Assembly (NCBI RefSeq): GCF_964642095.1
Contig: NZ_OZ209244.1
Span: 1,765,106 to 1,829,105 of the forward strand
Reading direction: 5' to 3'
DNA length: 64,000 nucleotides
Source of the DNA: Fretibacterium fastidiosum
Lineage (GTDB): Bacteria; Synergistota; Synergistia; Synergistales; Aminobacteriaceae
In this document: piece by piece, positions 5,374-60,092 of the stretch
Numbering within the stretch: the first letter of the stretch is position 1
Layout of the letters: each line of letters starts with the position of its first letter
Notes under the pieces: generated by a model
Databases searched by the model: none
What the model saw: the letters and a program-made list of their open reading frames with translations, nothing else
What the model was told of the DNA's origin: nothing
Position numbers and translations under genes: made by a program

Positions 5374-5895
5374 ATGATCAAAAAGCGAATCGATGCTAAA
5401 TCACTGGACCTCAAGGAGCGCGTTGTCGCCATAAACCGCGTCAGCAAGGTCGTCAAGGGCGGAAAGCGCTTCAAGTTCGCGGTCCTCGTGGTGGTGGGCG
5501 ACGGCGACCGTTACGTCGGGGCCGGAATCGGCAAGGCCAAGGAAATCGCCGAGGCCGTGCGCAAGGGGATCGAGAAGGCCAGCAAGGAGCTCGTCGCCAT
5601 CCGCAGGAACGGCGACACGATGCCGCACCCCGTCACCGGGTGCTTCGGCGCGGCGAAGGTCCTCCTCAAGCCCGCCCCCGCCGGAACGGGCGTTATCGCG
5701 GGCGGAGTGGTGCGCGCCATCATGGAGCTCGGAGGGGTGAAGGACGTCGTCACCAAGGTGGTGGGGCGCACCTCCAACTCCATCAACGTGGCCTGGGCCA
5801 CCCTCGAGGCGATCAAGGAGACCCGGACGGCGGACGAGATCTACAAGCTCCGCGGCAGGAAGCCGGCAGAGCCGGCGTCCGCCTCCGCGGATTAG
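5374..5895 (+). CDS. rpsE: 30S ribosomal protein S5
   Basis: VVAINRVSKVVKGGKRFKFAVLVVVGDG motif. 173 aa. Confidence 0.95.
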   Translation: MIKKRIDAKSLDLKERVVAINRVSKVVKGGKRFKFAVLVVVGDGDRYVGAGIGKAKEIAEAVRKGIEKASKELVAIRRNGDTMPHPVTGCFGAAKVLLKPAPAGTGVIAGGVVRAIMELGGVKDVVTKVVGRTSNSINVAWATLEAIKETRTADEIYKLRGRKPAEPASASAD

Positions 5896-5906
5896 GAGGT
5901 TTGACC

Positions 5907-6089
5907 ATGGCTAAGATTAAGGTCAAATGGGTCAAGAGCGCCATCGGTTTCGCGGAGCGCCAGAAGCGGACGATCAAGGCTCTTGGCTTCAAGAAGCTGC
6001 AGTCCACGGTGGAGCATGAGGACACCCCTCAGATCCGCGGAATGATCGAGCACGTCCGGCACCTTGTGGTCTGGACTGTGGAAGACTGA
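5907..6089 (+). CDS. rpmD: 50S ribosomal protein L30
   Basis: ATG at 5907 after GGAGG. MAKIKVKWVKSAIGFAERQKRTIKALG, 60 aa. The listed ORF at 5640 is an upstream extension overlapping rpsE. Confidence 0.9.
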   Translation: MAKIKVKWVKSAIGFAERQKRTIKALGFKKLQSTVEHEDTPQIRGMIEHVRHLVVWTVED

Positions 6090-6103
6090 GGAGGGGGACG
6101 GGT

Positions 6104-6550
6104 ATGAACCTTCATGATCTCAGGCCCGCACCGAACTCCCGCACCAAGGCGAAGCGCCTGGGGCAGGGCATCGGCAGCGGGACGGGCAAGACCTCCGGCA
6201 AGGGCAACAAGGGACACAAGGCGCGCACGGGCGGCGGCGTTCGTCCGGGGTTTGAGGGCGGCCAGATGCCCCTCGTGAGGCGGACGCCCAAGCGCGGCTT
6301 CAACAACGCCCGCTTTGCGCGGACCTATCAGATCGTCAACGTCGGGTCCATCGAGGACAAGTTCGAGGCCGGCCAGGAGGTCACTCCCGATACCCTCATG
6401 AGGGCGGGACTGATCTCGGGCGCCTCCCTTCCCGTCAAGGTCCTGGCGAAGGGAGACTTGCTGAAGGCCCTCACCGTGAGGGCGAACGCCTTTAGCAAGG
6501 GGGCGGAGGAAAAGATCAAGGCGGTTGGCGGGAAGGCTGAGGTGATCTGA
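6104..6550 (+). CDS. rplO: 50S ribosomal protein L15
   Basis: MNLHDLRPAPNSRTKAKRLGQGIGSGTGKTSGKG. 148 aa. Confidence 0.95.
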   Translation: MNLHDLRPAPNSRTKAKRLGQGIGSGTGKTSGKGNKGHKARTGGGVRPGFEGGQMPLVRRTPKRGFNNARFARTYQIVNVGSIEDKFEAGQEVTPDTLMRAGLISGASLPVKVLAKGDLLKALTVRANAFSKGAEEKIKAVGGKAEVI

Positions 6551-6551
6551 C

Positions 6552-7862
6552 GTGTTCGGGTCTCTCGGCGACGCCTTCAAACTGCCTGACCTGAAAAGAC
6601 GCCTTCTCTTCACCCTCGGCATCCTCTTCATCTTCCGGCTTGGGGCTCATATCCCAACGCCGGGAGTGGACACCGCCGCCATGGCGAACCTCTTCAACAG
6701 CGTCGGGGGCGGGGTGATGGACTTCCTGAACCTCTTCTCCGGCGGCGCGCTGAGCCAGTTCAGCATCTTTTCCCTCGGTGTGGCGCCCTACATCAACTCA
6801 AGCATCGTGATGCAGCTCCTCGTGGTGATCTTCCCCGCCCTGGAGAAGATGCAGAAGGACAGCGCGGACGGCCGCAAGAAGCTCATCCAGTGGACGCGGT
6901 ACGGCTCGATCGTCTTTGCGGTCGTGCAGGCCGTGGGCATGACGGCGTGGATCGGCAGCCAGGGGATCTTCTCAGGCACCTTGGGGGACGCCTTCATGAT
7001 CGTCACCACCCTCACGGCCGGCTCCCTGGCGGTGATGTGGCTGGGCGAGGAGCTCTCGGACCACGGGATCGGCAACGGCATCTCCCTCCTGATCTTCGCC
7101 GGCATCGTCGCCCGTATCCCGGAGGCCTTCATCCGCGTGGGGACGATGCTGCGCCTCGGCGAGATGAACTTCCTGGCGCTCCTTGCGGGGCTCGTGCTGA
7201 TGATCGTCGTGGTGGCGGGCTGCATCCTCCTGCAGGAGGGGCAGCGCCGCCTTCCGGTGCAGTACGCCAAGCGCGTCGTGGGGAACAAGGTCTATGGCGG
7301 ACAGAGCACCTTCATCCCCCTGAAGATCAACCAGGCGGGGGTTATCCCGATCATCTTCGCCTCTTCCATCCTGATCTTCCCCTACACCATCGCCAACTTC
7401 TTCAGCGACAGTGCCGTTGGGGCCTTTATCCGTGACCTCTTCGCGGCGGGCAGGATATTCTCCTTCTACACGCTCTGCTACGTCGTGCTGGTCGTCTTCT
7501 TCTCCTACTTCTACACGGCGGTGGTCTTCAACCCGACGGACATCGCCTCCAACATGAAGAAGTACGGCGGCTTCATCCTGGGCATTCGCCCCGGTCAGCC
7601 GACGTCGGACTACATCAGCCGCGTGATGGAGCGCATCACCATGGCGGGGGGCATCTTCCTGGCGATTGTCGCCATCATCCCCAACGTGATGACCTCCATC
7701 GTGGGGACCCGAAGCTTCTACTTCGGCGGGACGGCGGTCCTGATCGTCGTGGGCGTCGCCCTGGACACGATCAACCAGATCGAGGCCCAACTCCTGATGC
7801 GGCATTACGACGGGATACTGAAGAAGTCCGGCGGAAAGGCCGGAAGCCTGCTTCGCATGTAG
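6552..7862 (+). CDS. secY: preprotein translocase subunit SecY
   Basis: GTG start. 436 aa polytopic membrane protein. SALSQFSIFSLGVAPYI motif. Position after rplO. Confidence 0.95.
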   Translation: MFGSLGDAFKLPDLKRRLLFTLGILFIFRLGAHIPTPGVDTAAMANLFNSVGGGVMDFLNLFSGGALSQFSIFSLGVAPYINSSIVMQLLVVIFPALEKMQKDSADGRKKLIQWTRYGSIVFAVVQAVGMTAWIGSQGIFSGTLGDAFMIVTTLTAGSLAVMWLGEELSDHGIGNGISLLIFAGIVARIPEAFIRVGTMLRLGEMNFLALLAGLVLMIVVVAGCILLQEGQRRLPVQYAKRVVGNKVYGGQSTFIPLKINQAGVIPIIFASSILIFPYTIANFFSDSAVGAFIRDLFAAGRIFSFYTLCYVVLVVFFSYFYTAVVFNPTDIASNMKKYGGFILGIRPGQPTSDYISRVMERITMAGGIFLAIVAIIPNVMTSIVGTRSFYFGGTAVLIVVGVALDTINQIEAQLLMRHYDGILKKSGGKAGSLLRM

Positions 7863-16923: not shown

Positions 16924-17132
16924 GGAAGCGCTGCTTAAAAAGTTGTTGAAAGCAATCAAGGAGCGTCAAACGAAGGGTATCCCTCAGCGCTTCCCTAAAA
17001 TTTTAAAATGGGGCTACGCCCCAATCCCCACGCGCTTCGCGCGGTCTGATGGGGTTCCAGGCGCTAAGGGGAGACAATACGGTTGACAGTTCTCAACGAC
17101 TTAGGCAATGTTTCCTTAGGGGGCGTGATCTT

Positions 17133-26621: not shown

Positions 26622-27868
26622 ACGGCAAGGACAGGATCGACGTCCTGATCGTGGGGGCGGGACCGGCCGGCATCGCGGCGGGGATCGGGGCGCGCCGGGC
26701 CGGCGCGGAGCGCGTCGTCGTGGCCGAGCGGGACTGGGACCTTGGCGGCATCCTTCAGCAGTGCATCCATCCGGGCTTCGGGCTGCGCACGTTCAAGGAG
26801 GAGCTGACGGGGCCGGAGTACATGCACCGCTTCGTTCAACAGGCACGGGAGGCGGGGGTGGAGTTCCTCACCAACACGATGGTCTTTCGGATGGACCCGG
26901 ACGGGGGGCTCTGGACGATGAACCGGGAGCGCGGGATCGAGCGCCTGACGGCGGGCGCGGTGGTGCTGGCCATGGGATGCCGCGAGCGCCCTCTGGGGGC
27001 CATCCGCGTTCCGGGCACCCGACCCGCCGGGATCTACACCGCCGGAACGGCACAACGCTTCGTCAACATGGAGGGCGGGATGCCGGGCAGGCGGGCGGTC
27101 ATCCTGGGGTCGGGGGATATCGGCCTGATCATGGCCCGCCGCATGGTGTGGGAGGGCGCGTCCGTCGAGGGGGTCTACGAGGTCATGTCCTGGGCGGGTG
27201 GCCTGAGGCGCAACATCGCGCAGTGCCTCGACGACTACGGCATCCCCTTCCACCTGGAGACGACGGTGACCCGCGTGCACGGCCACGACCGCCTGGAGGG
27301 GGTGACGGTGGCGAAGGTGGACGAACGCCGCGCGCCCATCCCCGACACCGAACGATTCGTCCCCTGCGACACGCTCCTGCTGGCCGTGGGGCTCATCCCG
27401 GAGAACGAGCTCTCGCGCATGGCGGGCCTCGCGATCCACCCCGTCACGGGTGGCCCCGTGGTGAACGACCTGCTGCAGACCAGCCGCCCCTCCGTCTTTG
27501 CGGCGGGCAACGTGTCGATCGTCTACGACCTCGTGGACAACGTGAGCGACGAGGGGCTGAGGGCCGGGGAGAACGCGGCGCGCTACGCCCGCGGCGAGCT
27601 GTCCGCGGCGCGGGCCATTCCAGTGCGCGGCGGCGAAAACGTCCGCCTCTTCCTGCCCCAGTGCGTGACGGGGGAGACGGACGTCACGATCTACATGCGC
27701 GTCACCCACCCCATCGAGGGAGCGTGTCAGGTAACGGCGGAGCCGGGGCTGTTCTCCCGGCGCCTGCGCTACGCCCGCCCCGGAGAGATGTGCGAGGCGC
27801 ACATTGAGGCGCAGCGGGTCCGCGCGGCGAACCCCGAAGAGATCGTGGTGGACGTCCAGCCGGCCTGA
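26618..27868 (+). CDS. pyridine nucleotide-disulfide (FAD/NAD) oxidoreductase, partner of the GlpA-like subunit
   Basis: ATG at 26618 overlaps the upstream stop (ATGA). DVLIVGAGPAGIAAG and a second GSGDIGL Rossmann motif. 416 aa. Confidence 0.75.
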   Translation: MNGKDRIDVLIVGAGPAGIAAGIGARRAGAERVVVAERDWDLGGILQQCIHPGFGLRTFKEELTGPEYMHRFVQQAREAGVEFLTNTMVFRMDPDGGLWTMNRERGIERLTAGAVVLAMGCRERPLGAIRVPGTRPAGIYTAGTAQRFVNMEGGMPGRRAVILGSGDIGLIMARRMVWEGASVEGVYEVMSWAGGLRRNIAQCLDDYGIPFHLETTVTRVHGHDRLEGVTVAKVDERRAPIPDTERFVPCDTLLLAVGLIPENELSRMAGLAIHPVTGGPVVNDLLQTSRPSVFAAGNVSIVYDLVDNVSDEGLRAGENAARYARGELSAARAIPVRGGENVRLFLPQCVTGETDVTIYMRVTHPIEGACQVTAEPGLFSRRLRYARPGEMCEAHIEAQRVRAANPEEIVVDVQPA

Positions 27869-28031
27869 TACCAATTCGCGTTTAAAGAAGGGCAAGAAAG
27901 GCCCCCCTGCAAGGGGGGCTGCCCCGAAGGGGCTGGGGGGTGTTGAGTAGGCTAAGAGCGAACCCCTCCGCCGCCCTTGGCGGCACCTCCCCTTTCAGGG
28001 GAGGCAATCCACATTAGACGCGATTTGGTAT
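27868..28031. repeat. MITE-like repeat copy A (~164 bp, terminal inverted repeats ATACCAATTCGCG / CGCGATTTGGTAT, three internal GC hairpins)
   Basis: Nearly identical core (GGCAAGAAAGGCCCCCCTGCAAGGGGGGCTGCCCCGAAGGGGCTGGGGGGTGTTGAG ... CCCCTTTCAGGGGAGGCAAT) recurs at 58278-58434 and inverted at 54178-54611. Here it sits between the oxidoreductase gene and the DUF1667 gene. Confidence 0.8.
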
Positions 28032-28075
28032 GAGCCAGTGCGTTGACGGGACCGGAAGGGATCGGTGGTGCTGGA

Positions 28076-31034: not shown

Positions 31035-31167
31035 GGAATCCTGGGGTTGCGGGTTCGAATCCCGCTCCGGTCGGGAGGCCGGATAGCTCAAAGGCAGAGC
31101 GCAGGGCTGAAGTTGCGGGTTCGAATCCCGCTCCGGCCGGGAGGCCGGGTAGCTCAATGGTAGAGTT
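31035..31167 (+). other. cluster of tRNA-derived remnants: 3' tRNA fragment (31035-31078), 66-nt tRNA-like unit lacking an anticodon arm (31079-31144), 5' tRNA fragment (31145-31167)
   Basis: T-arm GCGGGTTCGAATCCCGC is repeated twice with acceptor 3' halves TCCGGTC/TCCGGCC. 5' halves GGCCGGATAGCTCAAAGGCAGAGC and GGCCGGGTAGCTCAATGGTAGAG. No complete cloverleaf can be built. Confidence 0.6.
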
Positions 31168-37373: not shown

Positions 37374-37403
37374 TTGGGGTTTGTGACCCGTTGTTGCTAT
37401 AAT
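37374..37403 (+). promoter_or_regulatory. candidate promoter of the Rpn array (TTGGGG-18-TGcTATAAT, extended -10)
   Basis: TATAAT at 37398-37403 preceded by TGC. About 30 nt upstream of the first Rpn start. Confidence 0.45.
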
Positions 37404-37432
37404 AAAGCCAACGAATACGTTGCCTGCTGGGG

Positions 37433-38554
37433 GTGATGAACATGGATGATGACAAGGGAGAGAAGTCGAGGGGCGTTCCGGTGATGACGACGCACGAACG
37501 GCAGGAGATGCTGAACCTCCAGGAGCAGGGGGAGCTGCCGGAGAACATCGACCGCTCCACCGACCTGTACTTCCGCTTCCTGCTGGGGACGCCGGCGCGG
37601 GGCCGGCTGCTTCGCGATATGCTGAACGCCTTCTTCGGCGCCCTGGGCTATCCCCTGCTGCAGACGGTGACCCTCACGGACACCGAGCGCGAGCCCGAGG
37701 CGCTGGGGGCGAAGTACACGCGCCTCGACCTGACGGCGCTGGACGATCTGGGCCGCACCCTCCACATCGAGATGCAGCGGGAGAACTACACCCACTTTCA
37801 AAAGCGCTGCCTCTTCTACCTGTGCCGGAACTACACGAGGTCGCTCAAGAGGGGCGAAGGGTACGCGAGCCTGTCCCCGATCGTCTCCATCTCCCTGTTG
37901 GGATTCGACCTTTTCGAGGGAGAGCGTGGGCTGTGGGACTTTGCGCTGATGAACCCTGATACGGGGCGTCGCCTGATGGAGGCGGACGACCTTCTTCTGT
38001 TCTACGTCGAGCTGAACAAGGCGTCGCGCCCCCTTCGGGAGCTGCGGGCGAAGCTGAAGGCGAGGCCGGGGCACGTTCTGAGCCCCGAGGAGCGTGCGCA
38101 GGTATGGGGAGGCTACATCAACAACGAGAGCGAGGGGTTGGCCCTGCTGCGCGAGAGCTTGTCGGGGGATACCGTTTTTTCGGAGGTGAGCGAGGTGGAG
38201 CAGGAGTACTGGAGTTCTCCGGAGAACCGCTACTATCAGCTGCGGGAGATGATGACGCAGCTGGATTATAAGGCGATTCGTGAGGACCGTCTGGCGGAGG
38301 CGACGAGGGCAGTCCGTGAAAAGGCTTGGGCCGAGGGTGTAGCCGAGGGCAGAGCTAAAGGCGAGGCTAAGGGCTGGACTAAAGGCAAAGCTGAGGGCAA
38401 AGCTGAAGGCAAGGCCGAGGGCATAGCCGAGGGCGAGTTACTGGGCAGGCAGGAGACGGCGCGCGCCATGCTGCGGGAAGGGATGTCCCCGGCTTCTGTC
38501 GCGCGCTTCACCCGCCTTTCCCCGGGCGAGGTCGAAGCCCTGAAGGGGAGTTGA
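37433..38554 (+). CDS. Rpn (YhgA-like) family PD-(D/E)XK recombination-promoting nuclease / putative transposase, paralog 1
   Basis: 373 aa. N-terminal conserved core. C-terminal low-complexity repeat AEGVAEGRAKGEAKGWTKGKAEGKAEGKAEGIAEGELLGRQETARAMLREGMS typical of the TIGR01784/Rpn family. First of three tandem copies. Confidence 0.7.
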   Translation: MMNMDDDKGEKSRGVPVMTTHERQEMLNLQEQGELPENIDRSTDLYFRFLLGTPARGRLLRDMLNAFFGALGYPLLQTVTLTDTEREPEALGAKYTRLDLTALDDLGRTLHIEMQRENYTHFQKRCLFYLCRNYTRSLKRGEGYASLSPIVSISLLGFDLFEGERGLWDFALMNPDTGRRLMEADDLLLFYVELNKASRPLRELRAKLKARPGHVLSPEERAQVWGGYINNESEGLALLRESLSGDTVFSEVSEVEQEYWSSPENRYYQLREMMTQLDYKAIREDRLAEATRAVREKAWAEGVAEGRAKGEAKGWTKGKAEGKAEGKAEGIAEGELLGRQETARAMLREGMSPASVARFTRLSPGEVEALKGS

Positions 38555-38596
38555 GAGGACGGACGATCGGCGGATTCGCGTGGCCGTTTTCAGGGA

Positions 38597-39670
38597 GTGA
38601 TGAACGTGGATGATGGCAAGGGAGAGAAGGCGAGGGTCGTTCCGGCGATGACGACGCACGAGCGGCAGGAGATGCTGAACCTCCAGGAGCAGGGGGAGCT
38701 GCCGGAGAACATCGACCGCTCCACCGACCTGTACTTCCGCTTCCTGCTGGGGACGCCGGCGCGGGGCCGGCTGCTTCGCGATATGCTGAACGCCTTCTTC
38801 GGCGCCCTGGGCTATCCCCTGTTGCAGACGGTGACCCTCACGGACACCGAGCGCGAGCCCGAGGCGCTGGGGGCGAAGTACACGCGCCTCGACCTGACGG
38901 CGCTGGACGACCTGGGCCGCACCCTCCACATCGAGATGCAGCGGGAGAACTACACCCACTTTCAGAAGCGCTGCCTCTTCTACCTGTGTCGGAACTACAC
39001 GAGGTCGCTCAAGAGGGGCGAGGGGTACGCGAGCCTGTCCCCGATCGTCTCCATCTCCCTGTTGGGATTCGACCTTTTCGAGGGAGAGCGTGGGCTGTGG
39101 GACTTCGCACTGATGAACCCCGGGACGGGGCGTCGTCTGATGGAGGTGGACGACCTTCTTCTGTTCTACGTCGAGCTGAACAAGGCGAAGCACCCCCTTC
39201 GGGAGCTGCGGGCGAAGCTGAAGGCGAGGCCGGGGCACATTCTGAGTCCCGAGGAGCGCGCGCAGGTATGGGGAGGCTACATCAACAACGAGAGCGAGGG
39301 GCTGGCCCTTCTGCGCGAGAGCTTGTCGGGGGATACCGTTTTTTCGGAGGTGAGCGAGGTGGAGCAGGAGTACTGGAGTTCTCCGGAGAACCGCTACTAT
39401 CAGCTGCGGGAGATGATGACGCAACTGGATTACAAGGCGATTCGGGAGGACCGGCTGGTGGAGGCGACGAGGGCGGTCCGCGAGAAGGCTTGGGCTGAGG
39501 GCGAGGCTAAAGGCTGGACTAAAGGTAAAGCTGAAGGTAAAGCCGAGGGCGAGCTGTTGGGCAGGCAGGAGACGGCACGCGCCATGCTGCGGGAAGGGAT
39601 GTCTCCGGCTTCCGTCGCGCGCTTCACCCGCCTTTCCCCGGGCGAGGTCGAGGCCCTGAAGGAGCGTTGA
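38597..39670 (+). CDS. Rpn (YhgA-like) family nuclease, paralog 2
   Basis: 357 aa. Over 90% identical to paralog 1 by eye. Shorter KAEG repeat tract (AEGEAKGWTKGKAEGKAEGELLG). Confidence 0.7.
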   Translation: MMNVDDGKGEKARVVPAMTTHERQEMLNLQEQGELPENIDRSTDLYFRFLLGTPARGRLLRDMLNAFFGALGYPLLQTVTLTDTEREPEALGAKYTRLDLTALDDLGRTLHIEMQRENYTHFQKRCLFYLCRNYTRSLKRGEGYASLSPIVSISLLGFDLFEGERGLWDFALMNPGTGRRLMEVDDLLLFYVELNKAKHPLRELRAKLKARPGHILSPEERAQVWGGYINNESEGLALLRESLSGDTVFSEVSEVEQEYWSSPENRYYQLREMMTQLDYKAIREDRLVEATRAVREKAWAEGEAKGWTKGKAEGKAEGELLGRQETARAMLREGMSPASVARFTRLSPGEVEALKER

Positions 39671-39712
39671 GGGGACGGACGATCGGCAGATTTGCGTGGC
39701 CGCTTTCAGGGG

Positions 39713-40750
39713 GTGATGAGCATGGATGAGGACAAGGCGAGGGTTGTTCCGGCGATGACGACGCACGAACGGCAGGAGATGCTGAACCTCCAGGAGCAGG
39801 GGGAGCTGCCGGAGAACATCGACCGCTCCACCGACCTGTACTTCCGCTTCCTGCTGGGGACGCCGGCGCGGGGCCGGCTGCTTCGCGATATGCTGAACGC
39901 CTTCTTCGGCGCCCTGGGCTATCCCCTGCTGCAGACGGTGACCCTCACGGACACCGAGCGCGAGCCCGAGGCGCTGGGGGCGAAGTACACGCGCCTCGAC
40001 CTGACGGCGCTGGACGATCTGGGCCGCACCCTCCACATCGAGATGCAGCGGGAGAACTACACCCACTTTCAAAAGCGCTGCCTCTTCTACCTGTGCCGGA
40101 ACTACACGAGGTCGCTCAAGAGGGGCGAAGGGTACGCGAGCCTGTCCCCGATCGTCTCCATCTCCCTGTTGGGATTCGACCTTTTCGAGGGAGAGCGTGG
40201 GCTGTGGGACTTTGCGCTGATGAATCCCGGTACGGGGCGTCGTCTGATGGAGGCGGACGACCTTCTTCTGTTCTACGTCGAGTTGAACAAGGCGAAGCAC
40301 CCCCTGCGGGAGCTGCGGGCGAAGCTGAAGGCGAGGCCGGGGCACGTTCTGAGCCCCGAGGAGCGCGCGCAGGTATGGGGAGGCTACATCAACAACGAGA
40401 GCGAGGGGTTGGCCCTGCTGCGCGAGAGCTTGTCGGGGGATACCGTTTTTTCGGAGGTGAGCGAGGTGGAGCAGGAGTACTGGAGTTCTCCGGAGAACCG
40501 CTACTATCAGCTGCGGGAGATGATGACGCAGCTGGATTACAAGGCGATTCGGGAGGACCGGTTGGCGGAGGCAACGAGGGCGGTCCGCGAGAAGGCCTGG
40601 GCCGAGGGCGAGGCTAAAGGTAAAGCTGAGGGCGAACTGCTTGGCAGGCAGGAGACGGCGCGCGCCATGCTGCGGGAAGGGATGTCCCTGGCTTCCGTTG
40701 CACGCTTCACCCGCCTTTCCCCGGGCGAGGTCGAGGCCCTGAAGATTTAG
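39713..40750 (+). CDS. Rpn (YhgA-like) family nuclease, paralog 3 (start by analogy with paralogs 1/2; track ORF begins at 39692)
   Basis: Near-identical to paralogs 1 and 2. Shortest repeat tract (AEGEAKGKAEGELLG). A few substitutions (S->L in ...GMSLASVARF). Confidence 0.65.
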   Translation: MMSMDEDKARVVPAMTTHERQEMLNLQEQGELPENIDRSTDLYFRFLLGTPARGRLLRDMLNAFFGALGYPLLQTVTLTDTEREPEALGAKYTRLDLTALDDLGRTLHIEMQRENYTHFQKRCLFYLCRNYTRSLKRGEGYASLSPIVSISLLGFDLFEGERGLWDFALMNPGTGRRLMEADDLLLFYVELNKAKHPLRELRAKLKARPGHVLSPEERAQVWGGYINNESEGLALLRESLSGDTVFSEVSEVEQEYWSSPENRYYQLREMMTQLDYKAIREDRLAEATRAVREKAWAEGEAKGKAEGELLGRQETARAMLREGMSLASVARFTRLSPGEVEALKI

Positions 40751-40926
40751 GAAGGTGCTGAAGGATACCCTTAGTTTGAACCAAAATCCTCAGGCAAAGT
40801 TTTAACGTGTAGCGGAGATAGATTTTGTGCGTTTTCTGCCGCACCTGCCAGGCGCGGCAGAAAACGTGCAGGCCTGCCCTCACTCTATGTTAAAAATTTC
40901 CCGTAAAATTAAAACTTTCGACCCTG

Positions 40927-41578: not shown

Positions 41579-41653
41579 GGGCGGATAGTTCAGCGGTAGA
41601 ACACCTGCCTTACACGCAGGGGGTCACAGGTTCGAACCCTGTTTCGCCCACCA
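41579..41653 (+). tRNA. tRNA-Val (anticodon TAC)
   Basis: GGGCGGATAGTTCAGCGGTAGAAC...CTTACAC anticodon loop...GGTTCGAACCCTGTTTCGCCCACCA. Cloverleaf fits, 75 nt with CCA. Confidence 0.85.
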
Positions 41654-41663
41654 TTGAAAAAGC

Positions 41664-41740
41664 GGGGTCGTAGCTCAGTTGGTTAGAGTGTCGGCCTGTC
41701 ACGCCGAAGGTCGCGAGTTCGAGTCTCGTCGGCCCCGCCA
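41664..41740 (+). tRNA. tRNA-Asp (anticodon GTC)
   Basis: GGGGTCGTAGCTCAGTTGGTTAGAGT...CCTGTCACG anticodon loop...GAGTTCGAGTCTCGTCGGCCCCGCCA. 77 nt. Confidence 0.85.
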
Positions 41741-41755
41741 GTTCAATATTTCGTG

Positions 41756-41831
<76 letters not shown>

Positions 41832-41844
41832 GGTCAGCGAAAAT

Positions 41845-41919
41845 GCGGAAGTAGCTCAGAGGTAGAGCACAACCTTGCCAAGGTTGGGGTCGCGGGTTCG
41901 AACCCCGTCTTCCGCTCCA
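41845..41919 (+). tRNA. tRNA-Gly (anticodon GCC)
   Basis: GCGGAAGTAGCTCAGAGGTAGAGC...CCTTGCCAAGG...GGGTTCGAACCCCGTCTTCCGCTCCA. 75 nt. Confidence 0.85.
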
Positions 41920-52657: not shown

Positions 52658-53569
52658 ATGGGTTCCGGGGAAGGAGCGTCCGCGGCGGCGGACTGCGGAG
52701 GCCTCGACGTCGGGGCGCTCCTGCGGATCGTCGCCTCTGACCTGGGGGGACGAAAGGTTCCCGCCCTCTCCCGCCCCTCCGCCTGGGAGGAGGCCCTGGC
52801 CCTCTGCCTGGCGGCCGAGGGCGTGGCGATCGTGACGGGGTTCTTTATCGCGTCGGCCGGCGCCCCGGAGACGGACGGACCGTCGGGAAGCGTCGTCTTG
52901 GGGCGGGCCCTGGAGCTCCTGGGCCGGAGGGTGCGGCTGGTGACGGACTCCCGCAACAGCCTCGTCCTGTCCGCCTGCTCCACCGCGCTGGGCGGTCCCC
53001 CCGTCGCGGCGATGGATCGCCCTCACCCCGACGCGCTGGAAGGGGCGGACCTCCTGGTCTTTCTGGAACGTCCGGGGCGCGCCGGAGACGGACGGTACTA
53101 CAACATGAGGGGGAGGGACATCTCGGCCTCCGTCGTGCCCCTGGACGACCTGGCCGCCCACGCGCTGGAGCGTGGACTTCCCGTCATAGGGATCGGTGAC
53201 GGGGGCAACGAGGCCGGAATGGGCGCCCTTTACGAGCCGCTGAAGCGGCTGATCCCGGAGTATGCGCGTTGTCTGTCCCGCGTGCCTGCAACCGTCTGCC
53301 TCCCCGCGGACGTCTCCAACTGGGGCGGGTACGCGCTGGCCGCCCTCCTGTCTGCCGCCTCGGGCCGGTGGGTGGGCCTGTCCCCCGGCGAGGAGGGGCG
53401 GGTCCTGAGGGCCGCCGTCGGCGCGGGGGCGGTGGACGGCACGACGGGCCGCAGCGCCCTCTCCGTCGACGGGTTTCCGCTGGAGCGCCTGGAGCGGGTG
53501 GCGGTGCAGCTTGAGGATTGGTATCGCTCTGGAAAAGACGTTCTCAATAAAGACAAAAACAATGCCTGA
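52658..53569 (+). CDS. DUF4392 family protein (D-glutamate cyclase-like)
   Basis: ITGFFIASAGAPETDGPSG motif characteristic of DUF4392. 303 aa. Confidence 0.5.
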   Translation: MGSGEGASAAADCGGLDVGALLRIVASDLGGRKVPALSRPSAWEEALALCLAAEGVAIVTGFFIASAGAPETDGPSGSVVLGRALELLGRRVRLVTDSRNSLVLSACSTALGGPPVAAMDRPHPDALEGADLLVFLERPGRAGDGRYYNMRGRDISASVVPLDDLAAHALERGLPVIGIGDGGNEAGMGALYEPLKRLIPEYARCLSRVPATVCLPADVSNWGGYALAALLSAASGRWVGLSPGEEGRVLRAAVGAGAVDGTTGRSALSVDGFPLERLERVAVQLEDWYRSGKDVLNKDKNNA

Positions 53570-53582
53570 AGCGTGATGTCCG

Positions 53583-54017
53583 GTGAAGCACAAATCCTTT
53601 TTTCCTCTGCTTTTGATATCCTTTGCGATGGCGCTCACGATCCTGTCCTTTTGGGTGGTTCGGAAGAACAGCCTCAATCCGCGGCAGGGCTTTACGATCT
53701 CCAACGTCTCGGTCAGCGTCGATTTTGACGACCGCCGCTTCCTGGCAGGGACGGCCTCGCGCTTTCCCTATGGGGCAAGGCAGGTGTTCGTGCGCTTCGA
53801 TTACAGCAGTCTTGAGACGAACAGCTCGATGGACCTCTCCTGGGACTGGGGGCAGAAGCGGGTGCAGGCTGAGACCTATGAGCTCTCCGCGCCGTCGGGC
53901 ACGCGGATGTACTGCCTGCTGAAGGAGGACGGCTCCCCTCTGCCGCGGGGGGTGTACACCGTCACGATCCAATGCCTGACCGAGATCATGCCGCACTTTC
54001 ATTTTGAGATCTATTGA
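53583..54017 (+). CDS. hypothetical membrane-anchored protein
   Basis: N-terminal hydrophobic segment FFPLLLISFAMALTILSFWVV. 144 aa. No recognised motif. Confidence 0.4.
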   Translation: MKHKSFFPLLLISFAMALTILSFWVVRKNSLNPRQGFTISNVSVSVDFDDRRFLAGTASRFPYGARQVFVRFDYSSLETNSSMDLSWDWGQKRVQAETYELSAPSGTRMYCLLKEDGSPLPRGVYTVTIQCLTEIMPHFHFEIY

Positions 54018-54177
54018 CGCTGCGCCCGGTCCGGGGACGGCACGGATTGAGCGCGACGAAGGATCGGCGATTTTTTCAAAAGGGGCGTTCCGTGAAATTT
54101 TAAATGGGGCTGCGCTCCCCTTCGGGGAGCTTTCCGGCGGGCAGTTCCCAACGATTTAGCTAGCGTTTCTTTCTAAA

Positions 54178-54611
54178 TACAAAATCGCGTCTAATGTGGA
54201 TTGCCTCCCCTGAAAGGGGAGGTGCCGCCAAGGGCGGCGGAGGGGTTCAGCCAGACGACCGGCCTCACGCAAGCCGATCTTTCGGGAGGATTGCGGCGGC
54301 CGGCCGATCGGCTGAGGGCGAAGGAAGTCCGGGGGACTTCCGCAGCTCAGCCAGACGACACGACTTACGGACGCCGACAGGCGGTCGGCGTCGTGTCGGT
54401 CGGCTGAGCCGAAGCAAGGTAATTGATTGCCTTGTGGAGGCGTTGACGGGGAATGTCAGACAGGCGCGTCTTATGAAAAACACCCCTCCCCTTCGGGGAG
54501 CCTTCCGGCAGCCGTTCGCTGACGCTCACGGGCCGTCAGTCCTAGCCCCTTCGGGGCAGCCCCCCTTGCAGGGGGGGCCTTTCTTGCCCTTCTTTAAACG
54601 CGATTTGGTAT
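54178..54611. repeat. MITE-like repeat copy B (~434 bp, inverted relative to copies A/C, composite with ~270-bp internal segment)
   Basis: Left end ATACAAAATCGCGTCTAATGTGGATTGCCTCCCCTGAAAGGGGAGGTG is the reverse complement of copy A's right end. Right end ...CCCCTTCGGGGCAGCCCCCCTTGCAGGGGGGGCCTTTCTTGCCCTTCTTTAAACGCGATTTGGTAT is the reverse complement of copy A's left end. Interior carries extra direct repeats (CAGCCAGACGAC x2) and palindromes. Confidence 0.75.
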
Positions 54612-54644
54612 AAGGTGTTCGCTTTAAGGTGAAATTTTTTTGAG

Positions 54645-56438
54645 GTGAAAGACGATGAAGCACAACGAACAGAACTTGGAGCGGTTATGGTGAAGGTTCT
54701 TGACGAGAAGGCGGCGACCCCTCGCAGGAGGGGACGGCCGCCGCGCGTGAAGGAGCCTGCGGAGGCCCTTGAAGAGGTGAAGGCGACGCAGCCTGAGGAG
54801 GCGGAAGGTTCCTCCCCGGCGGAGGAGAGCGCGGTGGTGAAGGTGCGCCGCCCGCGGGGCAGGCCGCCGAAGAACGCGGCGAAAAAAATTGAGGAAGCGG
54901 AGACCTCCCAACAGCTCCTGCTCCTTCCGGACGCCCGGAGGGTGGAGGCGGTGGAGCCCTCCGAGGCGTCGAAACCGGAGGTGCCGGCGCCCGACGAACC
55001 GGTGGATGAGATGGAGGAGACGACGGCGTATGGGGCGGAACCTGATTCCGCGTCCGAGGCGCAGGTCGTCCAGCCCGTCGAGGACGGGGAATCACCGGCC
55101 CCTCTCGAGCCGGCCCCCGACGAGCCGGCGGAGGCACGGGCACCTTACGCCCGTGCGTCGGTTCACGAGGTGACGCCCCATCCGAAGCCCAAGCACACCT
55201 ACTCCTACCTTGCGGCCCAGACCCTCACGGACCTTCGGAAGATCGGGCGGGAGTTCAACGTCGCGGGTCCCACCACGATGCACAAGGACGACCTGATCAT
55301 CTCCATCCTGAAGGCCCAGGCGGAGAGCATGAACTACCGCTTCGGTGGCGGGACGCTCGAGATCCTGCCCGAGGGGTTCGGCTTCCTTCGTCCCAAGGGG
55401 ATGCTGCCGACGGACAACGACGTCTACCTCTCGCTGTCCCAGATTCGGCGCTTCGGGCTTCGGAACGGGGACGTCATCTGGGGCCTGATCCGCCCGCCGC
55501 GGGACCAGGAGCACTACGAGGCGCTCCTGCGCGTGGAGACGGTGAACTTCTCGGACCCCGAGTCCTCTCGACATCGTCCGATGTTCGCCCACTTGACGCC
55601 CATCTTTCCCAACGTCCGAATCAACCTGGACTCCGGCCCTGGGGACTGGGCAACGCGCCTGGTGGACATGTTCGCCCCCATCGGCCTGGGGCAGCGCGCG
55701 CTGATCGTCTCGCCCCCCAAGGCGGGCAAGACGACGCTCTTGAAGCGCATCGCCAAGGCCATCTCCGCGAACTCGCCGGACATTATCCTGATGGCCCTCC
55801 TGATCGACGAACGCCCCGAGGAGGTGACGGACATCTCCCGCTCCATCGACGGAGAGGTGATCGCCTCGACGTTCGACCGCCCTGCGGACGAGCACATTCG
55901 AGTGGCCAACCTCGCCATCGAGAAGGCGAAGCGCCTGGTCGAGGCAAAGCGCGACGTCGTCATCCTCCTGGACTCGATCACGCGCCTGGCCCGCGCCTCG
56001 AACCTGACGGTCCCGCCGTCGGGCCGTACCCTGTCGGGAGGCCTGGACCCCTCCGGGCTCTACTTCCCGAAGCGCTTTTTCGGCGCTGCCCGAAACTTCG
56101 AGGAGGGCGGGAGCCTGACGATCATCGGGACGGCCCTGACGGATACGGGCAGCCGCATGGACGACGTCATCTACGAGGAGTTCAAGGGAACGGGCAACAT
56201 GGAGCTGCACCTGTCGCGCAAGCTGGCGGAACAGCGGATATTCCCCGCCATCGACATCACGCGGTCCGGGACGCGGCGGGAGGAGCTCTTGATCCCCGAG
56301 GACGAGCTGGCCCGCCTCTGGGCTCTGCGGAAGCGAATCGTTGGGGTGGACGAGGCCGGGGCGCTGAACCTGATCCTCGACAAGCTCAAGCAGACGAAGG
56401 ACAACCACGAATTCCTGATGTCCATAAAGCTGGCCTGA
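54645..56438 (+). CDS. rho: transcription termination factor Rho with long low-complexity N-terminal insertion (alternative ATG start at 54687)
   Basis: C-terminal two-thirds is canonical Rho: cold-shock-like RNA-binding domain, Walker [11 protein letters not shown], and ...RLARASN...SGG.... The ~170-aa N-terminal region is rich in E/P/A/R. Confidence 0.9.
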
Positions 56439-56497
56439 CCCGACGCCTGGGGCGCGGGACGGAACTTTCGCGCGCGTCGGGCGATTATGCGGCATCT

Positions 56498-56508
56498 TGT
56501 GCTATAAT
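56498..56508 (+). promoter_or_regulatory. extended -10 promoter element (TGcTATAAT) upstream of the LysM-M23 peptidase gene
   Basis: TATAAT at 56503-56508 preceded by TGC. Implies the peptidase CDS starts downstream of ~56515. Confidence 0.4.
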
Positions 56509-56529
56509 TCACGTATCGTACTTTGTCTT

Positions 56530-58173
56530 ATGACGAGCTTTGTGCCGGAACCGCATCCGCGCGCGGCGAAGGCATGTCGGGAGGAGTTGTCTTTGAGGAC
56601 ATTCGATCGTCGAACGCCGGATCGAAAGGTTTTTCCTGCTGAAGGCAAGAAGCGCAGAGGAAGGGAAAAAAAGGCTTCGCTGGACTTTTGTTGGGGTTTT
56701 TGCGTCGTCGTCTGTTTCACCTTTGGTCTGGCTTCGTTTTTGATGTTCTCCGCCTGGGAACGCTTTTCCGGCGTGGCGTGGGGCGGAGTCGAGGATCGGG
56801 AAAACGAGGGGGTCGTGGCGGAGGAGGGCTTCCTCGCGTTCGACGTGAGCGACATGCAACGCGATGACCTCCTGGCCGCAGCGCCCCTGGAGGTCATCGG
56901 GGAGGACGATCGGGAGGAGCCGATGGCCTCCCTCCCCGCCGAGCCGGCGGAATCCGAGGTCCGTGCCGAGGTCAGCGAGCTTCCGCTGAAGGAGGACTTC
57001 GGCCCCCTTCCCAAGTACCTGTCGGATTACGAGAGCATCGTCCTGAGCGCTCAGGACGACGGTACCCGCTTAGCGGAGGACGTCATCCCGTCAGACCCTG
57101 TCCCCCAGTTTGTGGAGGTGGGCACCGACTGGAAGGAGCACGTCGTCAAGTCGGGCGAGACGCTCTCGGACATCGCTCTGACCTTTGGCGGGCTCACCGC
57201 TCAGGACATCCTGAGGGCCAACGGGCTTAAGGACGCCAATCGCCTGGCCGAAAATCAGCTTCTCCTGATCCCTAAAGACGCGGACAAAATTGAAGAAACC
57301 CTTGAGGAGGTTCGCACGCGGCAGGCCCGCGTGGCGGCCCTGCGGGAGAAGGTCGAGCCTCTGAAGGTCTCGTCCTACGTGGTGGCCCAGGGAGACAGCC
57401 TGTGGTCCATCTCGAACTCCCAGAACATAGAGCTGGACACGCTTGTGGGCAGCAACGTCTTCAAGGCGACCCTGCACCCCGGACAGACCCTCCGCATCCC
57501 CAACCAGGAGGGAATCTTCTACACCCTGCGCAAGGGGGAGAAGATCGAGGCCGTCTGCAAGCGCTACGGGGTCGAGCTGGCCAAGCTGCGCCAGGTGAAC
57601 CACACCGTTGACGTGGTTGCCCTGAAGCCGGGGGATGAAATCTTCCTTCCCGGCGCAAGGCCGGAGGCCCTGGCCGTCACCCACGAGGAACCCCTTAAGG
57701 CGGAGAAGTCCGCCCCTGCCAGGAACGCTGCGCCCAGGGTTGCGAAGAACGCGAAGCAGAAGGAGGCGCCTGGGGCCGTTAAGGCCTCCCGCTCCTACCG
57801 ATGGCCGATCATGGGGCGGATCAACAGCCCCTTTGGCTGGAGGCGGCACCCCATCACGCGTCGTCAGGACTTCCATACGGGGATCGACATCAAGGCCAGC
57901 CGGGGTGCGGCAATTCGTTGCGCCCGGGACGGTCGGGTGGCCTATGCGGGCTGGATGGGCGGCTACGGCAAGGTGGCGGTCATCGAGCATCCGGGCGGGC
58001 AGTCCACGCTCTACGCACATTGCAGCACCCTCCTGCTGAAGCAGGGGGCGGCGGTGAGGCAGGGAGAGAATATCGCAAGGGTTGGAACGACGGGACGCTC
58101 AACGGGGCCGCATCTCCACTTTGAGGTTCGCAACGGGAACAGCCCGGTCAACCCTCTGAAATATCTGAAGTGA
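56530..58173 (+). CDS. LysM-domain M23 family metallo-endopeptidase (start uncertain: ATG 56530 or TTG 56593)
   Basis: N-terminal TM segment. Two LysM-like segments (HVVKSGETLSDIA..., YVVAQGDSLWSISN...). C-terminal M23 motifs HTGIDI...YAGWMGGYGKVAVIEH...LYAHC...GPHLHFEV. Confidence 0.8.
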   Translation: MTSFVPEPHPRAAKACREELSLRTFDRRTPDRKVFPAEGKKRRGREKKASLDFCWGFCVVVCFTFGLASFLMFSAWERFSGVAWGGVEDRENEGVVAEEGFLAFDVSDMQRDDLLAAAPLEVIGEDDREEPMASLPAEPAESEVRAEVSELPLKEDFGPLPKYLSDYESIVLSAQDDGTRLAEDVIPSDPVPQFVEVGTDWKEHVVKSGETLSDIALTFGGLTAQDILRANGLKDANRLAENQLLLIPKDADKIEETLEEVRTRQARVAALREKVEPLKVSSYVVAQGDSLWSISNSQNIELDTLVGSNVFKATLHPGQTLRIPNQEGIFYTLRKGEKIEAVCKRYGVELAKLRQVNHTVDVVALKPGDEIFLPGARPEALAVTHEEPLKAEKSAPARNAAPRVAKNAKQKEAPGAVKASRSYRWPIMGRINSPFGWRRHPITRRQDFHTGIDIKASRGAAIRCARDGRVAYAGWMGGYGKVAVIEHPGGQSTLYAHCSTLLLKQGAAVRQGENIARVGTTGRSTGPHLHFEVRNGNSPVNPLKYLK

Positions 58174-58189
58174 TTCCACATTGTAAAGA

Positions 58190-58230
58190 AGACGGGGGTC
58201 AGAGCCTTTCTGGCCCCGTTTTTTATTTTG
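58190..58230 (+). terminator. probable intrinsic terminator after the peptidase gene
   Basis: GC-rich hairpin GGGGGTCAGAGCCTTTCTGGCCCCG followed by TTTTTTATTTT. Confidence 0.5.
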
Positions 58231-58277
58231 AGGCCGCCCCGGCCACTCGGCGGGGCACTGAAAGAAACACTGACTAA

Positions 58278-58434
58278 TACCAATTTGCGTCTAAAGGGCA
58301 AGAAAGGCCCCCCTGCAAGGGGGGCTGCCCCGAAGGGGCTGGGGGGTGTTGAGCCTGAGAAACAACCCCTCCGGTTCGCTGACGCGAACCACCTCCCCTT
58401 TCAGGGGAGGCAATCATTAAACGCGAATTGGTAT
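58278..58434. repeat. MITE-like repeat copy C (~157 bp)
   Basis: ATACCAATTTGCGTCTAAAGGGCAAGAAAGGCCCCCCTGCAAGGGGGGCTGCCCCGAAGGGGCTGGGGGGTGTTGAG...CCCCTTTCAGGGGAGGCAATCATTAAACGCGAATTGGTAT. Same orientation and core as copy A. Confidence 0.8.
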
Positions 58435-58436
58435 AA

Positions 58437-60092
<1,656 letters not shown>

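Follow-up and report, generated by a model that had tools for sequence, protein, structure and literature searches.

A short, non-coding mobile repeat family in Fretibacterium fastidiosum with features of an IS5-type MITE

Introduction

Among the MITEs described in bacteria, the Correia elements of Neisseria and the RUP elements of Streptococcus pneumoniae are 100 to 160 bp long, intergenic, and present in high copy number. They are often co-transcribed with their neighbors, their inverted termini fold into a long hairpin, and they duplicate TA and are linked to IS630-type enzymes. A modular architecture is seen in the BOX elements of the pneumococcus and in the BIMEs (REP mosaics) of the enterobacteria, in which conserved end modules are combined with variable internal hairpins and both short and long forms occur. 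REP/BIME elements are not known to have terminal inverted repeats or a target duplication, and they are tied to RAYT enzymes. In the ISfinder family table, a 3-bp TNA duplication also marks the ISL2, IS1031, and IS427 groups of IS5. For the IS5/PIF-Harbinger superfamily, a 3-bp duplication at TNA or TWA is a defining mark (PMC4482050).

Here, we describe a repeat family with three copies, referred to as A, B, and C, in a 64,000-nucleotide stretch of the F. fastidiosum genome (the window). With the Tourist-like MITEs and other derivatives of IS5 and PIF-Harbinger (PHIS) elements, the family shares a small non-coding size, terminal inverted repeats, and a 3-bp duplication at TNA/TWA (PMC4482050). 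It differs from them in its host, a bacterium of the phylum Synergistota, and in that no cognate transposase or insertion sequence (IS) was found in ~458 kb of DNA. It is like the Correia and RUP elements in its length, its high copy number, its intergenic location, and the pairing of its inverted termini, but it duplicates TNA, 3 bp, and its interior is a stack of separate GC-rich hairpins. It is like BOX and BIME elements in its modular organization but, unlike REP/BIME elements, has both terminal inverted repeats and a target duplication. Searches of the full-text literature on Fretibacterium with MITE terms, and on the terminal sequences, returned nothing relevant (the terminal 12-mers matched only primers in unrelated papers), and the family does not seem to have been described previously.

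Results

All three copies that the initial annotation had placed at 27.9, 54.2, and 58.3 kb of the window were located (Table 1), and the length of ~160 bp that it gave for A and C agrees with the measured 162 and 156 bp. The long strings reported as shared by A and C were likewise recovered in place; a 57-mer is identical in the two (27891-27947 and 58297-58353), and a 20-mer, CCCCTTTCAGGGGAGGCAAT, occurs three times, at 27989-28008, at 58395-58414, and, on the opposite strand, at 54200-54219. Based on alignment, copy B has both ends of copy A but is inverted relative to it, and ~290 bp of additional hairpin modules separate the two ends. Its terminus is mutated at one end (TACAAAA), and one extra A, at 54177, lies next to one of its flanking TAA triplets.

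Table 1. Positions of the repeat copies, their parts, and associated features in the window
Feature	Position	Strand	Details
MITE copy A, short form	27869-28030	+	162 bp, TACCAATTCGCG...CGCGATTTGGTA; exact empty site known
MITE copy B, long form	54178-54610	-	433 bp; flanks TAA 54611-54613 and TAA 54174-54176
MITE copy C, short form	58278-58433	+	156 bp; TAA 58275-58277 and TAA 58434-58436 on either side
Left terminal inverted repeat, copy A	27869-27887	+	TACCAATTCGCGTTTAAAG
Right terminal inverted repeat, copy A	28012-28030	-	inward reading TACCAAATCGCGTCTAATG
Left target-site duplication, copy A	27866-27868	+	TGA; doubles as stop codon of the Pyr_redox_2 gene
Right target-site duplication, copy A	28031-28033	+	TGA; from comparison of filled and empty sites
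Hairpin 1, copy A	27900-27920	+	GGCCCCCC TGCAA GGGGGGCT; CCCCCC-TGCAA-GGGGGG
Hairpin 2, copy A	27921-27933	+	GCCCC GAA GGGGC
Long stem, copy A	27935-27969	+	GGGGGGTGTT / AACCCCTCC around a variable loop
Hairpin 3, copy A, variable module	27970-27984	+	GCCGCC CTT GGCGGC
Hairpin 4, copy A	27986-28004	+	CCTCCCC TTTCA GGGGAGG
Hairpin 1 of copy B, weak terminator-like site	54559-54590	+	T-rich tail, ~55 nt upstream of the rho ORF; the call is a consensus match only
F2 copy	16998-17130	+	
F2 copy adjoining MITE B	54085-54173	+	
F2 terminal fragment split by copy C	58437-58459	-	other part 58263-58274

Copies A, B, and C all carry the terminus TACCAAWTYGCGTYTAAWG at the start and its inverted form at the end. 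The terminal motif ATACCAAWTYGCGTYTAA occurs six times in the window, as three inverted pairs, where 0.01 occurrences would be expected by chance. The termini had been annotated as 13-bp inverted repeats; the inverted arrangement stands, but the repeats are 18 to 20 bp long and imperfect, with one to three mismatches. The copies themselves also stand as annotated, but their outer bounds do not: the outermost A and T of ATACCAA...TTGGTAT are part of the target TNA, and the element proper runs TACCAA...TTGGTA. Conservation of the inverted repeats extends to related DNA, where 58 termini carry TACCAAWTYGCGTYTAAWG, an invariance that is partly imposed by the search pattern. We also considered covariation between left and right termini as evidence and set it aside as uninformative, since it reflects two terminus haplotypes instead of compensatory change.

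In the window, the triplets flanking the elements read 5'-TNA-3' on both sides: TGA/TGA for A, TAA/TAA for C, and TAA/TAA plus the one extra A for B. Among 54 distinct insertion flanks in related DNA, all but one (53/54) have T at the second position before ATACCAA, and the base between that T and ATACCAA is A, C, G, or T in even proportions. That is, every end reads T-N-A-TACCAA, and this enrichment of T was not imposed by the search, given that the T lay outside the search pattern. In 5 of 13 complete copies the two flanking TNA triplets agree in their middle base, a share that does not clearly exceed the 25% expected by chance. All of the mismatches are in low-coverage short-read contigs, and the three window copies match; the mismatched triplets could stem from assembly chimeras that span the repeat or from recombination among copies.

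The decisive evidence for precise insertion comes from empty sites of copy A. Three contigs (L070, L074, and L075), which are 98.1 to 98.2% identical to the window at the nucleotide level and encode an oxidoreductase with 97 to 99% amino acid identity to that of the window, have the exact empty site, and the BLAST breakpoints against them fall at 27868 and 28031. The empty allele reads ...CAGCCGGCC TGA GCCGGCGCGTTGAC..., with the DUF1667 start 42 nt further on, and the filled allele in the window reads ...CAGCCGGCC TGA (TACCAA...TTGGTA) TGA GCCAGTGCGTTGAC...; immediately around the junction, ...CCGGCC TGA GCCGGCG... becomes ...CCGGCC TGA (element) TGA GCCAGTG.... By this comparison, copy A inserted precisely, adding 162 bp and a 3-bp duplication of TGA, and the insertion is polymorphic within the species. 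The initial annotation had asked for a search for target-site duplications, and these conspecific contigs prove a 3-bp TNA duplication for A. Parsing the junctions as TA duplications of the IS630 type was tried and rejected: TA does not occur in the empty site of copy A (CCGGCCTGAGCCGGC), which also distinguishes the family from the Correia and RUP elements.

Copies B and C are each missing from a relative that is 90 to 93% identical to the window (C from L076 to L079, B from L076 and L077). These absences are not clean empty sites, because the orthologous sites lack an adjacent repeat, F2, along with the MITE. F2 is a separate short repeat family with the core ACGGTTGACAGTTCTCAACGAC-TTA-GNCANTGTTTCYTT and is not part of the MITE. 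For copy C there is a paralogous empty site: at 17.1 kb and 54.1 kb, F2 has an uninterrupted TTA at the very point where C is flanked by TTA/TAA triplets. A flank in L016 was considered as the site of copy C in the opposite orientation and rejected, being unrelated beyond 9 nt.

How widely has the family spread? A terminal 20-mer was found at 60 metagenome loci, ~40 of them with Fretibacterium-like GC content (0.6 to 0.69), and an internal 20-mer at five loci in MAGs of other Fretibacterium species, along with three chance matches. A single oral-type assembly, ERZ772967, has 29 termini on 23 contigs, and it also has contigs 98.6% and 99.2% identical to the window. Most terminus matches lie 30 to 170 nt from a contig end with the element pointing outward, a pattern typical of repeats that interrupt short-read assembly. 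The older draft genome of F. fastidiosum SGP1 (L069, FP929056.1) encodes a PyrG identical to that of the window and matches the DNA around it at 100%. It differs only in stretches of N placed exactly at copies B and C (1382-1968 and 5643-5929); these gaps are 587 and 287 nt long, versus 1815 and 125 nt of real sequence.

Copies at unrelated loci are closely similar: C is 99.4% identical to a copy in L049, and A is 97% identical to copies in L065 and L046. Identity of up to 99.4% between unrelated loci points to recent movement of the family. The long form is also multi-copy (B and a copy in L028 are 94.9% identical over 313 nt), and complete copies outside the window range from 74 to 229 bp. 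Thus, the copy-number search proposed with the initial annotation recovers many dispersed copies with unrelated flanks, both in the same species and in sister species of Fretibacterium, and because similarity ends at the termini, the copies are not parts of a longer segmental duplication that includes the flanks. Beyond Fretibacterium, two low-GC environmental contigs carry short elements bounded by inverted pairs of these ~20-nt termini, one of 66 bp (L022, 263-328) flanked by TGA/TAA and one of 103 bp (L025, 839-941) flanked by TCA/TCA. The existence of these two elements suggests that a cognate transposase family may be found outside Fretibacterium.

The interior of the elements consists of GC-rich hairpins, as the initial annotation had proposed, and folding confirms that the predicted structures far exceed shuffled sequence in stability (z = -5.3, -7.2, and -9.3); the two strands fold equally well, and the DNA does so too. 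The count of three hairpins per copy is superseded, since the short form has five stems within the terminal stem. Individual hairpins behave as exchangeable modules. At the hairpin 3 position there are at least three unrelated sequences, each a perfect stem of 5 to 7 bp between invariant flanks (in copy C, GGTTCGC TGAC GCGAACC), and L047 carries a substitute for hairpin 2. The long form's ~290-bp block, which includes two tandem palindromic units, is located at the position of the long stem, and in several MAG copies the hairpin 1 loop harbors further nested palindromes. At the other extreme, a 74-bp copy in L017 has little beyond the two ends. With modules swapped or missing in this way, the constants of the family are the termini and the TNA flanks, not the hairpins. 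Nested mini-elements in the hairpin 1 loop were seen in L001 (2517-2640), L002 (4240-4423), L005 (4093-4153), L044, L048, and L052, and none was found within the window. The ends of one of them, CTGATGAAGCCCCTAAG, resemble the outside end of IS10 (CTGATGAATCCCCTAATG).

The elements had been annotated as containing no ORF. Strictly, a 139-amino-acid ORF (54194-54613) lies within copy B; it has no Pfam match, so the claim holds in the sense that no coding sequence of a known family is present. Against Rfam 15, only tRNAs reach the gathering score in the whole window, nothing is found at E<=1 between 54000 and 58500, and copy A yields only sub-threshold matches to eukaryotic miRNA precursors (37.9 bits versus a gathering score of 137). 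The tRNA genes (RF00005) comprise a cluster of four at 41579-41916 and an isolated one at 31077-31139.

Pfam-based gene context agrees with the annotated placement of all three copies between genes. Copy A separates a Pyr_redox_2 oxidoreductase gene from its DUF1667 neighbor, copy C is flanked by pyrG and by an M23/LysM peptidase gene with a terminator of its own, and copy B is upstream of rho; relative to the neighboring genes, the copies occur in both orientations. Copy A leaves intact both the stop codon of the gene before it, which is the TGA that became duplicated, and the ribosome-binding region after it, and it would probably be co-transcribed as a 162-nt structured spacer in an oxidoreductase-DUF1667 operon.

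The sequence gave no support to the suggestion that each copy could supply a terminator or attenuator: on the gene-sense strand of A and C, no hairpin is followed by a run of T (B and C were covered by a terminator scan of 53500-59000, and A was read directly from the sequence). All terminator-like matches within the scanned elements are on the strand opposite to the element's orientation. They comprise hairpin 1 with a weak T-rich tail, CCTTTCTTGCC, in B and C, and, at 54486-54500, an inner hairpin of B. The opposite strand of hairpin 1 faces a gene in copy B alone, where that gene is rho. This terminator-like site is missing from relatives without the MITE.

The search for a partner element covered ~458 kb of Fretibacterium-like DNA, in which no autonomous element with TACCAAWTYGCG termini was found. 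No mate terminus was present 0.3 to 4 kb inside any solitary terminus, as would mark a full-length IS, and coding regions enclosed by paired termini were likewise absent. Against plasmids, a BLAST search with the terminus yielded chance matches only. Several candidates were examined and rejected. A 783-bp candidate IS in L017 resolves into the 74-bp mini-copy followed by a putative toxin-antitoxin pair and an apparently degenerate end, and ORFs next to termini in the low-GC loci are mostly chance matches inside coding sequence (e.g., ...TNLRLK...). A phmmer search with Escherichia coli IS5 InsH against 1,571 ORFs from Fretibacterium-like loci gave one match, in L044. The complete IS5-group IS there (5643-6893) was rejected as the partner because its ends, GGAAGCGCTGATTAAA, bear no relation to those of the MITE. 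This IS adjoins a PDDEXK_2 gene on a Fretibacterium-like contig and encodes a transposase with strong similarity to E. coli InsH. The MITE termini, which start with TACC, also do not match the IS5-family end consensus (GG/GAG); in both respects the family departs from the Tourist-like and PHIS elements.

When all ORFs were clustered for multi-copy genes, only PDDEXK_2 paralogues stood out. In the window, three tandem PDDEXK_2 (PF12784) genes of ~1.1 kb each, 97 to 98% identical over 300 nt, occupy 37400-40830; their products are "PD-(D/E)XK nuclease family transposase" proteins. In L028, L049, and L053, a MITE stands in place of the 3' end of a PDDEXK_2 gene.

Discussion

In total, the dispersed copies, the conserved terminal inverted repeats, and the target-site duplication bear out the MITE reading of the initial annotation. 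A non-autonomous cut-and-paste transposon would account for the inverted termini, the precise insertion, the 3-bp TNA duplication, the many near-identical copies at dispersed loci, and the polymorphism between strains. We therefore favor, with a probability of about 0.88, the view that A, B, and C are copies of a recently spread, non-coding MITE of ~75 to 435 bp whose partner is most likely an IS of the IS5 family. In this model, a DDE transposase supplied in trans would recognize the ~19-bp termini, make a 3-nt staggered cut at TNA, and cut and paste the copies. The partner would most likely be an IS5-family IS (ISL2/IS1031/IS427-like), because the 3-bp TNA duplication is the signature of IS5/PIF-Harbinger elements.

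Could the repetition instead reflect function? If the copies were a structured RNA kept for its fold, whether a cis-regulatory leader, an attenuator, a terminator, or a small RNA, this would suit the stability beyond shuffled sequence, the stems that are kept while their sequence is replaced (the three versions of hairpin 3, and hairpin 2 in L047), and the intergenic position of all three copies. Such an RNA is nonetheless difficult to reconcile with a fold that is as good on either strand and as DNA, with copies in either orientation to their neighbors, with conspecific strains that are without copy A and show no other change, with the target duplication, with the lack of any Rfam family at threshold, and with the lack of a T-run after a hairpin on the gene-sense strand of A or C; we regard it as very improbable. 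The same intergenic GC-rich palindromes, and a mosaic and nested organization reminiscent of BIMEs, might instead suggest a palindrome of the REP/REPIN or IS200/IS605 type, moved as single-stranded DNA by a Y1 transposase (RAYT/TnpA) that recognizes hairpins and not termini. REPINs and IS200/IS605 derivatives are not known to make a target duplication or to have terminal inverted repeats. Here, the target is duplicated, the conserved features are the 19-bp inverted termini and TNA, and the internal hairpins vary or, in the 74-bp copy of L017, nearly vanish while the termini stay, all of which makes this reading extremely improbable.

A different question is whether a true MITE is moved here by something other than an IS5-type DDE enzyme, such as an IS30-family transposase, another transposase that makes 3-bp duplications, or the PDDEXK_2 paralogues. 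The searches found no IS5-type partner, PDDEXK_2 genes are multi-copy (in the window and in L001, L026, L028, L044, L049, and L053), and at two distinct loci a MITE lies within 200 bp of, or inside, a PDDEXK_2 gene. Yet with both families so abundant, two adjacencies in ~45 MITE loci come near the chance expectation, no MITE lies within 9 kb of the three PDDEXK_2 genes of the window, and the 3-bp TNA duplication is the known signature of IS5/PIF-Harbinger elements (PMC4482050). Nor are PDDEXK_2 proteins known to mobilize elements with inverted termini and a duplication. We consider a non-IS5 mover very unlikely. A bolder version would treat the interior as a scaffold on which modules are swapped, added, or nested by a dedicated process, and/or would make the mover a newly recognized enzyme, for example, PDDEXK_2. 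The three unrelated stems of hairpin 3, the multi-copy long form with its tandem palindromes, and the insertions in the hairpin 1 loop would speak for dedicated module exchange, and the failure to find a DDE partner for a mover of a kind not known for this role; we think this version very unlikely as well.

On our preferred reading, an IS5-type MITE, the family is a biologically ordinary case of a well-understood class of selfish DNA, and we infer that effects on neighboring genes are by-products of insertion. Such effects may still matter: copies sit inside operons and gene leaders (oxidoreductase-DUF1667, rho, and pyrG) and so could alter expression between strains. The family also explains the fragmentation of Fretibacterium assemblies, and its copies provide strain-level presence/absence markers for a periodontitis-associated, hard-to-culture oral bacterium.
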